Positions 54,241 through 63,722 of a stretch of 64,000 bases of DNA are shown here, in pieces (the first letter of the stretch is position 1; every line of letters begins with the position of its first letter). The position numbers were made by a program, and so were the translations under genes. The DNA is from Mustelus asterias (lineage: Eukaryota), in the NCBI RefSeq assembly GCF_964213995.1, contig NC_135806.1:93186001-93250000 (forward strand), given 5' to 3'. Under the pieces are notes generated by a model, which searched no databases, was not told the origin of the DNA, and saw only the letters and a program-made list of their open reading frames with translations.

Positions 54241-54464
54241 GGCAATTGTTGTCACCTTGCTTCCAGAATTTAGATCTTTGATTTATGATTAGACAAAGAC
54301 TGCAATAAAGTCTGGAGCTGAATGGTCATGGTTGTTGCCAGAAAATCTGACAGGTTTTATTTTTATTATACTTTGTCATAGTGAATTGGTACAATGGAGT
54401 TTCTTGCTAGGCCATTACAAGGAGCTGTTAAGAGTCAACCACATTGCTCTGGTCTAGAGTCACA

Positions 54465-54634
54465 AATGGGTAAGGATGGCAGATCCCAGAATGGGTAAGG
54501 ATGGCAGATCCCAGAATGGGTAAGGATGGCAGATCCCAGAATGGGTAAGGATGGCAGATCCCAGAATGGGTAAGGATGGCAGATCCCAGAATGGGTAAGG
54601 ATGGCAGATCCCAGAATGGGTAAGGATGGCAGAT
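54465..54634. repeat. 25-bp perfect tandem repeat, about 6.8 copies
   Basis: Unit AATGGGTAAGGATGGCAGATCCCAG. Confidence 0.97.
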
Positions 54635-56247
54635 TTCCTTCCCAAAAGGACATTAGTGGACCAGCTGAATTTTCACAGCAATTTGGTAGTTTTGTGTCCA
54701 CATTTATTTTTGAAAAATCCAGATCAATATAATTCATTGAATTTAAACTGCCAGTTGCTGCACTTGGATTTGAATTCAGATCTCCTGATCATTAGCCCTG
54801 GCCTCTGAAACATTAACTAATAATATAATCACTATGCTACATATTCAGGTATTATTAATCAATTTGCTACAAAGTGTAAATTGTGAGTATGCAAACCATA
54901 ATATAAAATAAACAATGGAATGTTTCTTTAAATATGGAAAAAATATTAAAACAGACAGAGAGAGAACTAAGATGTATTCCTTTTAGTACATTGTCCACAG
55001 CAAAATACATTAGGTGCTCAGATCTAAGTAACAGTGAAAAATAAAATGCAAACCTTTGGATGGAATTGATCCTAATAAATCATAGCAAAGCATAACATCA
55101 AAGTGATGAATATGTAGTTCTTTGAAACACTTGAACTGAAATCGAAGAGAAAGTGAGGCCTTCTTTTCCATCAATATTCTAAAATGACAAACAATTTGAA
55201 TCATATACTTGCATCACTAAACGTTAATGGTGTTGTATCTTATTTTATCCAGAATTAACATAATTTTTAACATAATGCAGAATTAACACAACTTGTGCTC
55301 TTGGGTGTAGTTATAGGAAAAGGCAAACATCTCTAATGAAAGGATTTGGGAAGAATCTTGTAAGAGATTTCCTCAGAGTAAGGTAAATTTCCCTTTTGAT
55401 TGGAAAGTCAAGTTTTCATAGTCTTCTGTGGAGTTTTATTTGGTCCAAAGGATGGGTAGAAGGGACTTGGAAAGAGCTCAATAACAGAAATGGTCAAATT
55501 ATAGTGGGAGGATGTGACCTTAAAGTCAGGTTCCTCTGTATTTCAGGCTGTATAGTAGCATGGGCTGCTTCAATACCAAAAGGAGCAGTGGAAGTTGTAG
55601 ATCTCCCTCATATGGGTCAAATGACCTGATCCACTCCTCTAGGATGCCAACAATCGACTCTTCGAACCTCATTGTATTAGCTTTCAACTGAGGCTCAATA
55701 GAGCTGAACATGGGTCATAGATTCTGCTCACAGAGGGTAGGCCTAATTTCAAAGAAGCCACCCACAAACCTGGCTATCAACTACAAATAGTGACGGATTG
55801 TGACAGGGATTCAGAGAACACACGACAAAACACAATACTATCAAAAACAGAGATTACTGGAGGCACACAAGCAAACTAGTGAGCAGCAGAAAGAGAAAAT
55901 GAGGTTAACTGATCGGACTGATGAAGAATCCCACACAAAGCAAATGTAACAAATGTGTTTGGTGTTTTCTATAATTTTTGATTTGATTTTAAAATTTCCA
56001 GCATTAACAATCCTTAATTTTTAATAAGCATTTCTTTGTCTCACCTGTTGGCCATTACAGATAATTTCAGCTTATTTTCCAGGCCACACAACATATACGG
56101 TATCTTCTCCTTGCAGTCATCAAGGCTCATAAATGAGGAGCTGAATATCACAACATCAATATCAGACCAATCTCTGGTGTCTGTCCCTTTGAAATAAGAG
56201 CCGCCCTGTGAAGATATATGGCAAAAATTACAAAATAGGACAGAATA

Positions 56248-56555
56248 GGGCAGTACTCTGGCACAATGGTTAGCACTGCTGCCTCACAGCGCCAGGGACC
56301 CGGGTTCGATTCCTGGCTTGGGTCACTGTCAGGGCGGAGTCTACATGTTCTCCTGTGTCTGCGTGGCTTTCCTCCGGGTGCTCCAGTTTCCTCCCACAGT
56401 CCAAAAGACATGCTGGTTATGTGCATTGGCCATGCTAAATTCTCCCTCAGTGTACTCGAATAGGCACCGGTGTGGCGCGACTAGGGGATTTTCACAGTAA
56501 CTTCATTGTAGTGTTAATGCAAGTCTACTGGTGACACTAATAAATGAACTTTAAA
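56248..56555 (+). mobile_element. V-SINE
   Basis: A box TGGCACAATGG, B box GGGTTCGATTCC and a V-domain. The tail is shared with the 37240 copy. Confidence 0.88.
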
Positions 56556-56799
56556 AGTAGAAAGATTTGCATTCACGTAGCGCCTTTCACAACCCAAGGA
56601 CATTGCAAAATGCTTTACCATCAATGAAGTACATTTCAAGTGTAGTCACTGTTACCGGACAAGAAACATGATGGCCACTTTTCACAAAACAAACCACACA
56701 AACAACCAATGAAATAAATGAGCAGATTATCTACTTAGGTCCTGGTTGAAGGATAGGTATTGTCCAGGACATCAGGAGAACTCATTTGTTTTCCATCAC

Positions 56800-57115
56800 T
56801 GTGGTGAACCATCGTTGGTTCCCACTGGATAGTACTGGGCCAGGGCTGGCCAGCACTATGGGAATGTATATAGGTTACTGTGGGATTGTACTAATGTTGT
56901 TGTTGGGCTAGGGTGGGATTGATACCCCTGTGGTTGTTACTGTTGTGGCACATCCCAGTCGGGCTCCGCCTCCTGGGAGAGGTATAAGACCCCCTGTTCG
57001 GACGGGACCCCTTCAGTCTGGGATAGTGTGTTAAAGTTCTGATAGTTCCATTGTTAGTTAATAAAAGCCTTCTTTTACCGAAGCTTTGTGCCTCGTGTCC
57101 AATTGATGCGCATCA
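56800..57115 (+). repeat. 5' LTR (316 bp)
   Basis: Differs from the 3' LTR by 4 substitutions and one 2-bp indel. Confidence 0.97.
56964..57017 (+). promoter_or_regulatory. LTR core promoter (GC box, TATA, Inr-like)
   Basis: CTCCGCC at 56964-56970, TATAAG at 56983-56988 and TCAGT at 57013-57017, about 30 bp downstream of the TATA box. Confidence 0.55.
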
Positions 57116-57169
57116 ATTTTATTAACTAAAATTAAACTCTCGACGGAAGAAAAAAAAAGAAAGGAGAGT

Positions 57170-60100
57170 ATGGAGCAAATCCTCAAGCCAGAACGTCTGA
57201 CACTAGATCCACGTGCGGTGGGCGCTTCTAACACCTTCGACCACTGGCTGAAGTGTTTTGAAGACTACCTGGCAGCCTCCGCAGCGGTCACCACAGATGA
57301 TGACAGACTCCGGGTCCTCCATGCGAGGGTAAGCGACACAGTCTACCTCGCGATCCGTGCGGCCACCACTTACCCGAGGGCCCTCGAGCTTCTAAAAAAG
57401 CGCTATACGAAACCTCCTAACGAGATCCACGCTCGTTACCTCCTCGCTACACGACGTTGGCAGTCGGGCGAAACCATGGAGGACTACGCCAATGAGCTCT
57501 TACAGCTAGCCAGGGGCTGTGACTGCAAAGCTGTGTCGGCTGGGCAGTACATGTACGACCTCGCCCGAGATGCGTTTGTGGCCGGGGTCGGGTCTTCATA
57601 CATCCGTCTCAAGCTGCTAGAAAAGGGGAATCTCAACCTGACCCAAGCCATGGAATTAGCTGAAATGCTCGAGGCGGCTTCGAAGAGCTTGGTCCTGTAT
57701 CCGGAGGACCACGTGGAGACAACGTGGCAGGAGCAGTCGCAAATCCCTCCTCGCCCCTCGGGCTTGAAGTGCAGTGTTATGGCGTGCTCCCATGTGGACC
57801 AGACGACGGCTGCAGCCCCATGCGGCCCGCGGTGCTACTCCTGCGGAGGAGCCAAACATACCCGACAAAAGTGTCCCGCTAAAGCGGTAGTCTGTACCGC
57901 ATGCGGTAAAAAGGGGCATTATGCGAAGGTGGGCAGATCGAAGCCCAGGAACAGCAGTGCGGCCAGTAACCCTTCGGAACGGGGATCATCACCATCATCG
58001 TCGAAGTACTCACGAGGTTCGTCCACGTGCGAGTCCAGGACGATGCCATTGCGGTCGACGGAGTCGGAGGATGACGACCACCAGGGGTCACTAAGTTTGG
58101 CGCCCTCACCCATGTGCGATTCATAGGAGCAGCCATTTTGGTCGACGATGACCATGAGCGACCAGCAGGGGTCCTCAGCATCGACCTCAGCTGCCTGCAG
58201 TGACGTTCACGGACCAATGGTGGCATCGATCACCCTGGACCAGGCTAAGCCTCACAGGCTTGATTGTTCGATGATGGATATACAGGTAAATGATCATGCG
58301 ATTTATTGTCTGTTTGACAGCGGGAGCACTGAGAGCTTTATTCACCCTGACACTGTGAAGAGGTGTGGACTCCAGATTCAACCTGCCAAACAGACAATCT
58401 CTATGGCATCAAGGTCCCGGTCTGTCGCTGTGCTAGGACGTTGTGTGGTAACTTTGAAAGTGCAAGGCACAATTTACGAGCGTTTCAGGCTCCTTGTGTT
58501 GCCGCATCTTTGCGCACCAATTCTCCTCTGACTAAACTTTATGGTCCACATGAAGAGTGTGATCCTACAGTACAGTGGGCCACTCCCTTCGCTGACAGTG
58601 GGAGAACAGCTGCAGTCTCCAAATTGTCCAAAGCGCCCCGCCTGCAATCTTTCTACGTTAAAGATCACCACACCCTCTTTATTTCAGAATCTGGTACCAG
58701 GCTGCAAGCCCATCGCCACTAAAAGTAGGCGTTACAGCACTGAGGATCGGATCTTCATCAGATCTGAGGTTCAGCGACTCCTCAAAGAAGGGATCATACA
58801 GCCCAGTGTTAGTCCGTGGAGAGCACAGGTTGTGGTGGTCAAGAGCGGGAACAAACCCCGGATGGTCATTGATTACAGTCAGACCATTAACCGATATACG
58901 CAGCTGGATGCGTATCCTCTCCCGCGCATATCTGATATGGTCAATCAGATTGCGCAGTACCGGGTGTTCTCCACCATAGACCTTAAGTCCGCCTACCACC
59001 AACTCCCCATTCGCCCAGAGGACCGACAATACACGGCCTTTGAGGCGGATGGTCGTCTGTATCATTTCCTTAGGGTTCCATTTGGTGTCACCAATGGGGT
59101 CTCGGTCTTCCAGCGTGCTATGGACCGAATGGTGGACCAGAACAGGCTGCAGGCTACCTTCCCGTACCTGGATAATGTCACCATCTGCGGCCGTGATCAG
59201 CAGGACCATGACACAAATCTCCAGAACTTTTTACGCACTGCATCTCGCCTGAATTTGACCTACAACAGGGAGAAGTGTGTATTCCGTACGCGCCGGTTAG
59301 CCATCCTGGGATACGTGGTGGAAAACGGGGTCATTGGCCCTGATCCAGACCGTATGCGCCCCCTTGCTGAACTTCCCTTGCCCGCTAGCGCAAAAGCACT
59401 GAGAAGATGCCTAGGCTTCTTCTCCTATTATGCGCAGTGGGTCCCCAACTACGCGGACAAAGCCCGTCCGCTTATTAAGTCCACGACTTTTCCACTCACG
59501 CCAGAGGCCCAATTGGCCTTCAAGGAATTGAAACACGACATCGCGAAAGCCACGATGCACGCGGTAGACGAATCCATCCCTTTTCAGGTGGAAAGCGATG
59601 CATCTGATTTCGCCCTGGCCGCCACACTAAACCAGGCGGGCAGGCCCGTCGCGTTTTTTTCCCGCACCCTCCAAGGCCCCGAAATTCGGCATTCAGCGGT
59701 GGAAAAGGAGGCCCAGGCCATTGTGGAGGCCGTCAGACACTGGCGCCATTACCTGGCGGGAAAGCGGTTCACCCTGATCACGGACCAGCGGTCCGTGGCG
59801 TTCATGTTCAACAACTCGCAGAGGGGCAAGATCAAGAATGACAAGATCTTGCGGTGGAGAATTGAACTCTCCACCTATAACTACGATATCATGTATCATC
59901 CAGGGAAACTCAATGAGCCCTCGGATGCCCTCTCGCGCGGAACATGCGCTACTACGCAGGAGGATCGCTTGAACGCCCTCCATAATGACCTGTGCCATCC
60001 GGGGGTCACTCGGCTCTACCACTTTGTCAAAGCCCGCAACCTGCCTTACTCGGTGGAGGACGTCAGGTCGGTGACAAGGAGCTGTCGGATTTGCGCGGAA

Positions 60101-61164
60101 TGCAAACCGCACTTTTACCGACCTGACCGGGCACATTTGGTCAAGGCCACTCGCCCCTTCGAGAGGCTGAGTGTTGATTTTAAGGGCCCCCTTCCCTCAA
60201 CAGATCGGAACGTGTACTTTCTGAACATAATAGATGAGTACTCCCGGTTCCCGTTTGTTGTCCCCTGCGCGGACACATCGGCTGCCACGGTGATCAAGGC
60301 ATTCCGTGACCTTTTTACCCTGTTCGGGTACCCCAGCTATATCCATAGCGACAGGGGCTCGTCGTTCATGAACAATGACTTGAGGCAATTCCTGCTCTCA
60401 TATGGGATTGCCTCTAGTAGGACCACGAGTTACAACCCTAGGGGTAATGGACAGGTGGAACGAGAGAATGCTACAGTCTGGAAGGCTGTCCTATTGGCGT
60501 TGAAGTCCAGAGGCCTTCCAGTCTCCCGTTGGCAGGAGGTCCTCCCCGATGCGCTTCACTCCATTCGCTCCCTCCTGTGTACGGCAACCAATGCTACTCC
60601 CCACGAGAGGATGTTCTCATTCCCTCGGAAGTCGTCCTCGGGGATATCTTTACCAGCCTGGTTGACGTACCCAGGACCCGTCCTCCTGCAGCGACATGTA
60701 AGGGCCCGCAAGTCCGACCCCTTGGTCGAACAGGTCCACCTCCTCCACGCCAATCCTCAGTATGCCTATGTGGCATATCCTGACGGGCGAGAGGACACAG
60801 TCTTGATCCGAGACCTGGCGCCGGCAGGGGACGTAGCAACTCCTGTCGCTCCCATACCCCCAGTGACAAATCCCTTATCCCTTATTTCTCCCCGGACGTG
60901 GCGCGGACAGCATCGGGACCAGGGCTTAACAGTTTTACTCCAATGCACAGCTTGCCTGAGCCCCGAAGATCGTCGCCACCGCAGAATGTGTCAGGATCCC
61001 CTGCACTACCGTTTCATCAGGGTCAACCGGCCTGTGAGTCCGTGGGAGAACAGCTGGATGCCGTTTTGGGGAGAACGCCACCGCAAGTGCCTACTCCGGT
61101 GTCACTGCCGGTATTGAGGAGGTCACAACGACGGTGCGGTCCTCCAGACCGTCTGAACTTATAA
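57170..61164 (+). pseudogene. Gypsy gag-pol single ORF with two in-frame stops and a late frameshift
   Basis: ORFs starting at 57170, 58148 and 58541 share one frame and are separated by TAG (58124) and TGA (58529, in the LL*LNF motif). Motifs: PR LFDSGS, RT IDLKSAY/PFG/YLDN, RNase H SDAS/EKEA/TDQ/DALSR, IN HHCC plus VDFKG/SDRG/QVER. The C-terminal LRRSQR..PPDRLNL is in another frame after about 60890. Confidence 0.93.
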
Positions 61165-61226
61165 TCTGTTGACATTTTAGTCTGTTTTCGTACCCCGCCG
61201 GCCTTTGTTCTCAAAGGAGGGGTGAA

Positions 61227-61540
61227 TGTGGTGAACCATCGTTGGTTCCCACTGGATAGTACTGGGCCAGGGCTGGCCAGCACTATGGGAATGTATATAG
61301 GTTACTGTGGGATTGTACTAATGTTGTTGTTGGGCTAGGGTGGGATTGATACCCGTGGTTGTTACTGTTGTGGCACATCCCAGTCGGGCTCCGCCTCCTG
61401 GGAGAGATACAAGACCCCCTGCTCGGACGGGACCTCTTCAGTCTGGGATAGTGTGTTAAAGTTCTGATAGTTCCATTGTTAGTTAATAAAAGCCTTCTTT
61501 TACCGAAGCTTTGTGCCTCGTGTCCAATTGATGCGCATCA
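61227..61540 (+). repeat. 3' LTR (314 bp)
   Basis: Preceded by the PPT and followed by the TSD ATCAC. Confidence 0.97.
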
Positions 61541-62964
61541 ATCACACAGTGCTGTGGGGTTTTTATGTCCACCTACGAGGATAGATGGGGCCTCGGTTTA
61601 ACATGTCATCTGAAAGATGCACCTCCAGTAGTGCAGCACTCCTTCAACACTGCACAGACATACCAGCCAAGGTCATCTGCTCAAATCACTGGAGTGGGAC
61701 TTGAAGCAACAATCTCCTAATGCACGCTCACCGTAAACATTTAAATAATTTGCTAAAAAATATTAGAGATATTTCACAGGTTGAATTAGTGATTTATTTT
61801 CTAAGACCAATAATTTATAAATCTTAAAATACAAAGTTTTTAGGAATTTAGGTAAAGGCAATAAATCACTTAAATTGTTCCTGGCACAAACCTCTCTATG
61901 TATTAGTTATAGTTGATAACAGTTTAGTCTGAAGTCACCTTATCCTTCTGATGATTGATTACTTGGTCCATCGGTTAACTAGAGGCTTGCAGTGTATCCC
62001 TGTCTGGAACCCTCTTTCTGACTCATCTTTACCGCTGGGCACAGCTATCCAGTAAGGTTACTGCAGAGTCTCGCATTAGTAGAATATATAATTACTATAC
62101 ATCAGTACACTAACTACTGTGGTGTGTAGGTACAGTGGAATTACATTTTATAAGCTTCGCTTCTGCCAGTTGAATATAAAATCTCTTTCAAGCTTACAAA
62201 TTCATCCATGAATACTGACCATTTAGGTTTGAATCCACATTGATAACTAGACTTGGGCACTTTCAGCTTGCTCTCGGAGTGGAGTGCTCGACTTTGTGAA
62301 GAATCTTCAAACAACTTACTGACTTCAGCCAGTTGCTGTTAATTCACTAAGTTGACTCTGCCTCACCAGACTAAATTGGTAAATGTGAGTTGTTGGCCTA
62401 AATTCCTCAGAGTGATAATCAGCAGTGGAGTGACACTCCGTACCGACTTAGCTGCTCTCAAATTCCATAGTACCTGTCTCATCCGACCTTCTGCATTCAG
62501 GCCGGGTGAGACTCAGGCAGTGAAGAGTGTCCCTGGCTGTAGCAACAAGAAGGAGTGGAGCAAAGGAGGACACGTCCCCTTTTTACAGCACTAGCTGCCG
62601 TAAAGCAGGTTTGAAGGTCTCATTGAAAGAGAGAAGATTGGTTTCTGAGGCAAGTGAATAAAATGAGGGGGTGGGGGGGCGGGGATGTGGATATTGGGGG
62701 AATGAAGAGTTGGACATTGGAGGGCAATGGGGAAGGGGGAAGTCAGGGAGAGAGTGTGGGCTGGGGGCGTGAGGCTGGGTTGGGTACATTGGGGTGAGGT
62801 GGGGCTGTCCAGTTGGGGAGGTGGGATCATTTGAGTCAGGGGGTGAAGGGGTGGTTGGGCCGATGTGGGATCAGGCTCGGTCGGGGGATGGGAGAGGGAG
62901 GGAGGGAGGGTCAGGGCAAGGTGGGAGGGGGATACGTAAGTGTGTACAGTGTGGGGCTTGGTTT

Positions 62965-63722
62965 GCGTCTTTTGTGAGGCCGAGCCTGGAACATTATACG
63001 TAGGTTTGGTCTCCTTATCTGAGGAAGGATGTTCTTGCTATAGAGGGAGTGCAGCGATGATTTACCAGGTCGACTCCTGGGATGATAGGACTGATGGATG
63101 AGGAGAGATTGTGGCGGTTAGGATTGTATTCCCTGGAGTTCAGGAGAACAAGTGGAGGGGTCTGAAAGCAGTTGAGGTCAAAACATTGTATGTTTTCAAG
63201 ACAAGTTAGGTGTAGCTCTTGCGGCTAAGGGATCAAAGGATATGGTGGGGGGTGGGGGGGGGTGGGCGGGGAGAAGCAGGAACAGGTTACTGAGTTCATA
63301 GAATCCCTGCAGTACAGGAGGAGGCCATTCAGCCCATCAAGTCTGCACTGACTCTCTGACAGATCACCTTAGCCAGGCCCATCACCTGCACTATCCCCAC
63401 ATTTTCCACATGAATCCCCCTAACCTACACATCTTGGAACACTAAGGGACAATTTAGCATGGCCAATCCACCTAACCTGCTCATCTTTGAATTGTGGGAG
63501 GAAACCAGAGCACTCAGAGGAAACCCCCCATGCAGACATGGGGAGAATGTGCAAACTCCACACAGTCACCCAAGGCTGGAATCGAGCCCAGGTCCCTGGC
63601 GCTGTGAGGCAGCAGTGCGAACCACTGTGCCACCGTAGATGATTAGCTGTGATCATAACAAATGGCGGGGAAAGCTCGAAGGACTGAATGGCTTACTCCT
63701 GCTTCTATTTCCTATGCTTCAA
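62965..63722 (+). mobile_element. CR1 3' fragment split by a SINE
   Basis: Degenerate VRPSLEHY..VWSPYLRKDVLAIEGVQR.FTR. The 3' UTR resumes at 63637. Confidence 0.75.
63296..63636 (-). mobile_element. V-SINE (HE1-like)
   Basis: Minus strand has CGGTGGCACAGTGG, GGCTCGATTCC, a V-domain and a CR1-type tail. Confidence 0.88.

Follow-up and report, generated by a model that had tools for sequence, protein, structure and literature searches.

A Gypsy element of Mustelus asterias and its relatives probably prime minus-strand DNA synthesis with an LTR segment of their own RNA and not with a tRNA. That self-priming of some form, without a tRNA, operates here is a safer statement still, judged from the sequence. 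The pairing between primer site and LTR is real and lineage-wide. How they are primed is a core property of LTR elements. In the parts of the literature available to us, the Gypsy elements said to self-prime are the Tf1/sushi and Tcn1 chromoviruses. A second lineage, widespread in animals, would mean either that self-priming arose once more independently or that an old state has been retained.

The window, which is the whole stretch of 64,000 nucleotides that was analysed, holds a complete Ty3/Gypsy element. The LTRs (TG...CA), the target-site duplication (TSD), the polypurine tract (PPT) and a pol in the order PR-RT-RH-IN are all present. The features are these, in window positions.

56795..56799, plus strand: left target-site duplication ATCAC, from the LTR/TSD comparison
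56800..57115, plus strand: 5' LTR, TG...CA, 316 nt
56983..56989, plus strand: TATA-like box TATAAGA, present in all own-genome subfamilies shown; putative function
57013..57019, plus strand: initiator-like motif TCAGTCT, with a start near 57015 predicted from motifs
57052..57066, plus strand: predicted self-primer segment in R; the exact core of 13 nt is 57054-57066, and most subfamilies have 15 nt
57060..57065, plus strand: AATAAA hexamer closing the segment on its 3' side; three subfamilies have ATTAAA
57067..57085, plus strand: predicted stem opening directly after the segment, which puts a helix junction at the putative cut site
57116..57116, plus strand: spacer A, one nucleotide from the LTR end to the primer site
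57117..57129, plus strand: primer-binding position, complement of the R segment
57170..58126, plus strand: gag region with two zinc-knuckle-like motifs, and an in-frame stop at its end in the window copy
58127..58531, plus strand: aspartic protease region, with stops on both sides in the window copy
58532..61117, plus strand: RT - RNase H - integrase frame, without a chromodomain
59165..59176, plus strand: RT motif YLDN (YxDN in place of YxDD), common to most relatives
61213..61222, plus strand: polypurine tract
61227..61540, plus strand: 3' LTR, with 4 substitutions and one 2-nt gap relative to the 5' LTR
61479..61491, plus strand: 3' copy of the segment, the rival primer source
61541..61545, plus strand: right target-site duplication ATCAC

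Stops separate gag, protease and RT in the window copy. The closest solved relative is the Ty3 RT/RNase H (PDB, E 2.5e-55), and the nearest named proteins come from rays and catsharks (75-84%), which points to a cartilaginous fish as host. The element is abundant, with 2,589 junctions of one hexamer type in the host genome.

The letters at 57054-57066 are TTAGTTAATAAAA, and those at 57117-57129 are their exact reverse complement. The 5-bp TSD ATCAC (56795-56799 / 61541-61545) fixes the boundary, so the LTR ends at 57115 (...CATCA) and a single A (57116) lies between it and the primer site. No TGG start follows the 5' LTR of the window element. The LTR segment ends in AATAAA plus one A. The initial annotation had claimed an exact self-complementarity of 13 nt that takes in AATAAA, and the sequence comparison confirms it. 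A 13-mer match of this kind appears in 0 of 20,000 shuffles of the LTR, with an analytic expectation of 2e-6. The usual duplex of the family is 15 bp, and that of the window copy is only 13 bp because its branch inherited a mismatch at position 14. Among the 30 nearest copies the primer site is found in all 30 and the LTR segment is intact in 29.

The pairing was then followed through the host genome. A search with a distant RT listed 100 copies, 50 of which were fetched. Two lack an LTR pair and 7 lack a called TSD, so 41 TSD-bounded copies were scored. The duplex is 15 nt long in 33 of them, 14 in 3, 13 in 4 and 11 in 1. The segment ends 48-49 nt before the LTR end in 40 of the 41. Nine segment variants occur among these copies, each with its own matching site. 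With the junctions and further copies examined in this genome the count rises to 12 LTR-segment variants, again each with a matching primer site. A junction pattern that left four positions free on both sides, in segment and site, gave the 2,589 junctions. In a tally by eye of the first 100, 96 match at the four free positions. The other four are a change in the 5' LTR only, a change in the site only, a G-U pair that is present in both LTRs, and a recombinant.

Since 12 site variants each match their own LTR, one host tRNA cannot track them. A half of a host tRNA, or some other host RNA, might nonetheless be the primer, with the LTR match secondary or due to chance. Half-tRNA primers exist in copia elements, according to the portion of PMC6317226 available to us, and a tRNA-Thr(AGT) call matches 10 of the 13 positions of the window site internally. 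However, the site variants of this one genome track the LTR letter for letter. The initial annotation, which saw no tRNA-type primer site, had suggested a comparison with host tRNAs. It was run on a partial set (31 distinct calls, 10 isotype labels), and the best match to a tRNA 3' end is 5 of 13; with this and the missing TGG, the absence of such a site stands. A host RNA as primer is hardly credible.

Both LTRs are changed while the site is old in L184/185 and L235, and L205/206 have a near-identical background but are compensated. This suggests a change that arises in the LTR and reaches the site later. At duplex positions 14-15, whole subfamilies have inherited mismatches or bulges, and therefore the far end of the site is not fully rewritten in each cycle. 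A survey for crossovers between subfamilies, intended to locate the end of the strong-stop template, returned 41, 12, 7, 6 and 1 pattern matches. Inspection covered 32 of the 41, the 12 overlapping those, and all 14 of the last three sets. The matches inspected are sister subfamilies or point mutants, except for L177 and L184/185, and L177 is the single cross-subfamily event.

The same pairing is found in distant families. A search with 44 aligned RT/RNase H sequences brought in 80 metagenome loci plus 15 from genome bins, which are presumably animal DNA carried along. A gag start was found in 43 loci and 30 were scored. Four were dropped as too short and nine because they lack CAATTT before gag; four of these nine look degenerate by eye. 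The scored loci form 17 families at 80% RT identity, each represented by its first locus. A family pairs with its own site at 11 or more of 13 positions in 15 of 17 cases, compared with 14 of 272 cross-family pairs. Perfect pairing (13/13) is found in 9 of 17 families and in 0 of 272 cross-family pairs. The two representatives that fail pair at 6 of 13. There is an additional match of 15 nt in L242, which sits on a long branch within the clade, and L032 differs from L039 by a one-base compensatory change. All scored loci start CA-A-TTT, in part through the way loci were selected, and loci whose boundary is set independently by an LTR pair start in the same way. Across families the segment has an invariant TAAA at its 3' end, usually followed by RCC. 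The initial annotation had named covariation as the check and a chance match in AT-rich sequence as the refutation. Pairing covaries both within the genome and across distant families, so the chance explanation fails; the shuffles and the cross-family comparison rule it out as well.

TGG primer sites were found in four distant Gypsy copies (L245, L247, L249 and L252), which have RT/RNase H directly before the 3' LTR. This is an integrase-first order that we take to be Gmr1-like. In a quick tree these four fall across a long branch from the self-pairing group; it must be noted that this tree labels L091 as self-pairing though L091 failed the pairing test. RT relatives are named from corals, flukes, nematodes, spiders, a sea slug and a tunicate, and a scan for relatives in viral contigs found none. 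In many relatives (L031-L041, L033-L035 and others) only 15-40 nt separate the LTR end from the gag start. In some the gag start stands directly behind the primer helix, which could also affect translation. Several contigs of about 4-6 kb (L239, L240, L242, L033, L034, L045 and L053) have overlapping ends with one LTR and one internal region. They are collapsed repeats or one-LTR circles, and three are filed in bacterial genome bins.

We propose the following route for priming. The transcript would start near 57015, since conserved TATA and initiator motifs place the predicted start some 37 nt before the segment. That segment of R (+38 to +52) would fold onto the site across U5 as a helix of 13-16 bp, with its edge 1 nt from the LTR end. 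The RNA would be cleaved after TAAA, where the segment ends on its 3' side and meets a second stem. The cutting agent would most plausibly be the element's RNase H, as in Tf1. The new RNA 3' end would then prime copying into U5. Plus-strand synthesis would copy the primer and could overwrite the site, by which a change in the LTR segment would reach the site one generation later. The initial annotation had placed the segment about 40 nt inside the transcript, in line with the 38-52 nt measured here from the predicted start.

Folding predictions give pair probabilities of 0.9-1.0 over most of the local 5' helix. The stem opens directly after the segment in 14 of 28 copies, compared with 0.20 for shuffles. 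The acidic residues D/E/D/D of the RNase H are conserved in 44, 44, 42 and 42 of 44 rows; cleavage by this enzyme would release the primer. Polyadenylation at the hexamer was weighed as a source of the primer and rejected; no conserved upstream signal is visible. The 5' internal R copy is the likelier primer because it folds locally, and we put this at somewhat better than even. We found no precedent for a capped flap of 37 nt on a primer in the self-priming literature available to us.

The predicted start matters here, since a strict Tf1 geometry would place the real start near 57052 and prime with the first 15 or so nt of the RNA. The duplex is constant at 13-16 nt, like a short terminal primer, and the RNA 5' end is what Tf1, Tf2 and Tj1 use according to the sections seen of PMC4600332 and PMC5341516. 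However, the TATA and initiator motifs, 32 nt apart and conserved in all subfamilies shown, point to 57015. The short read-through copies described below also reach 18-28 nt, which is beyond the duplex. A start at 57052 is improbable.

If plus-strand synthesis copies a primer made of the element's own RNA, upstream R sequence is expected past the site in some insertions. We found 27 junctions in the host genome that continue the primer site with upstream R sequence, using two patterns whose reversed controls gave 0. Seven of these carry 18-28 nt and then jump. Three of these seven (L161, L162 and L166) are complete two-LTR elements in which the site is overwritten by an R copy of 21-23 nt, after which the leader resumes. 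The LTR segment can thus template primer-site sequence during replication. The other 20 extend past the predicted start as far as the LTR start or further, three of them (L163, L170 and L258) through the PPT into pol. None of the 27 stops at the predicted cap, and this could be explained by DNA fold-back, by selection for two integrable ends, or by a primer from the 3' copy. Six of the 20 are palindromic mini-elements with perfect 5-bp TSDs; therefore integrase handled them. These mini-insertions (L164, L165, L171, L172, L175 and L261) consist of LTR sequence with two U3 ends, an integrable dead-end product of reverse transcription. In L169 and L280, which belong to different subfamilies, the extension jumps to the same inverted pol position, at about element position 2283.

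The read-through shapes fit either R copy as the primer. One could suppose that the 3' copy primes: the tail of the genomic RNA, of the same or a partner molecule, would be cut or trimmed to the end of the hexamer and act at the 5' site. The junctions that pass the predicted start, with the three that go through the PPT into pol, speak for this, and so does L175, which joins arms of two different molecules. However, plus-strand DNA fold-back yields the same products, and the 5' copy makes the same helix locally and would occupy the site first. The changed LTRs with an old site fit the two-generation route, though RT errors also make them. A primer from the 3' copy is therefore unlikely, yet it is the strongest competitor of the local 5' copy. 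Two individual insertions were tried as pointers and rejected. L175 does not mark the transcription start, since its arms differ in U3 as well as R. A mismatch in L161 does not indicate the primer source, as it is confined to the 5' LTR of that copy. A further insertion, L238 (G000:C6:33949000-33958900), is a tandem of two internal regions and three LTRs with a primer site after the middle LTR, like Tf1/Tf2 tandems.

The local helix has a second predicted role. It would hide the poly(A) hexamer of the 5' copy; the 3' copy has no partner and would stay open. Folding predictions leave the hexamer unpaired with a probability of 0.00-0.09 in the 5' context, compared with 0.14-0.80 in the 3' one. 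The initial annotation had proposed that the duplex in the 5' LTR covers the poly(A) signal, and the prediction agrees. For this genome we consider masking of the 5' signal slightly favoured. The overlap with AATAAA that the annotation described is present in every segment variant of the host genome (AATAAA or ATTAAA), but in only part of the other families. Several families have segments that end in GTTAAA, TTTAAA, GATAAA or CATAAA. Masking may therefore not be general, because these hexamers are non-canonical, and we are less sure of it in such families.

It is worth considering that the helix is only a regulator that hides the 5' poly(A) signal, with a protein, another RNA or a distant site as the primer. 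The hexamer always ends the segment in this genome and swaps only between AATAAA and ATTAAA, and its pairing is predicted to differ between the 5' and 3' ends. There is also the precedent of HIV-1, where a hairpin covers the 5' AAUAAA and represses 5' polyadenylation (PMC2645353, as far as the text available goes). However, masking alone would not require the helix of every family to have its edge exactly 1 nt from the LTR end. There is no other primer site after the LTR, and R sequence is found copied onto the LTR end. A purely regulatory helix is thus very improbable. The HIV-1 polyA hairpin resembles the present case in that RNA structure, here predicted, lies over a poly(A) hexamer. That hairpin is at both ends and, in the part of its description seen, is no primer, whereas here the partner is the primer site itself, which only the 5' end has.

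Tf1 has been shown to self-prime, and the same has been proposed for Tj1 and for related elements in hosts ranging from fungi to vertebrates (PMC4600332, PMC5341516; passages seen). Like Tf1 and Tf2 of S. pombe, Tj1 of S. japonicus and Tf1/sushi elements in these accounts, the present element has no tRNA site and its primer site is complementary to its own LTR. Their primer is released by cleavage and a PBS copy can remain on the cDNA end (PMC4600332, PMC5341516, PMC11042837, in the parts available); such a copy is kept at the 3' end of about half of Tf1 cDNA (PMC11042837, likewise). Self-priming is described in the accessible text of PMC5445492 as using the first nucleotides of the RNA. Unlike Tf1/sushi, where the partner is the RNA 5' end, the partner here would lie 38-52 nt inside the predicted transcript. 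The segment of 13-16 nt ends in a poly(A)-type hexamer, and the lineage has YxDN in its RT and no chromodomain. From complementarity of at least 10 nt between site and LTR, self-priming has also been predicted for Tcn1 and the plant TAR copia elements Houba and Osr-1 (PMC6317226, sections seen). These share with our element a post-LTR site complementary to the LTR, but belong to other lineages and hosts, and the sections seen describe no overlap with a poly(A) signal and no covariation series. The Conserved Hairpin Site of fungal GalEa copia elements is another non-tRNA site; according to its authors, in the available part of PMC5445492, it is a local, conserved structure without a complementary LTR segment.

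At E 0.1 neither the window frames nor 7 full-length relatives gave a Chromo match, and there was none among 240 homologs, many of them partial. The description as a non-chromovirus in the initial annotation thus holds. The element would work like Tf1 but is not filed as Tf1/sushi, because no chromodomain was found. The name Mag-like, given in the initial annotation, is tentative. A double zinc knuckle in gag is a feature of the Mag lineage (A, B and C clades). The window gag frame has two CCHC-like motifs that were read from the sequence and gave no Pfam match, and 2 of 7 relatives give weak zf-CCHC matches. Look-ups of element motifs in the supplements of PMC6238403 and PMC2774666 gave no match.

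Among 120 relatives (P0001-P0120) the RT motif is YxDN in 79 and YxDD in 36, one of which is a mis-hit; 5 are unmatched. Members with YxDN and YxDD are mixed across the tree, and YxDD members also self-pair. The D211N mutant of Ty1 RT presumably changes the second aspartate of YxDD to asparagine. This mutant keeps polymerase activity, loses transposition and is partially rescued by RNase H suppressors (PMC2148107, as far as seen). Unlike in the mutant, most members of the present lineage, which has thousands of young copies, carry YxDN naturally. A search of the accessible literature found no paper that names YxDN or YLDN.

In the accessible literature, that is, outside subscription papers and Repbase notes, we found no animal Gypsy clade other than chromoviruses that is described as self-priming. 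Nor did the search of that literature find an earlier description of an internal primer ending in a poly(A) signal. A tentative reading, to which we give slightly less than even standing, is that a large animal Gypsy lineage with a naturally YxDN RT, present in cartilaginous fish and with the RT relatives named above, evolved self-priming apart from Tf1/sushi. An internal R segment would serve it as both primer and 5' poly(A) switch, and the site would be re-templated from the LTR. If so, site and LTR coevolve without the constraint of a tRNA. The lineage would also escape control by tRNA fragments, and it has a bearing on the idea that priming by hairpins is older than priming by tRNAs (PMC3601003, in the part available). 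Annotation tools that demand a tRNA site would miss or mislabel such elements. The claim is directly testable, because the natural variant series together with the fossil copying products predicts exactly where a cut RNA end should lie.

Some minor observations on the window remain. Two of the four substitutions between the LTRs lie in and beside the TATA-like box of the 3' LTR (61406-61411 region). A tandem array of a 25-nt unit, with about 7 mostly identical copies, is found at 54440-54664. A short interspersed repeat occurs as two inverted copies (56254-56560 / 63439-63637) whose matched arms are 83-88% alike, and we take it to be an HE1-like SINE.
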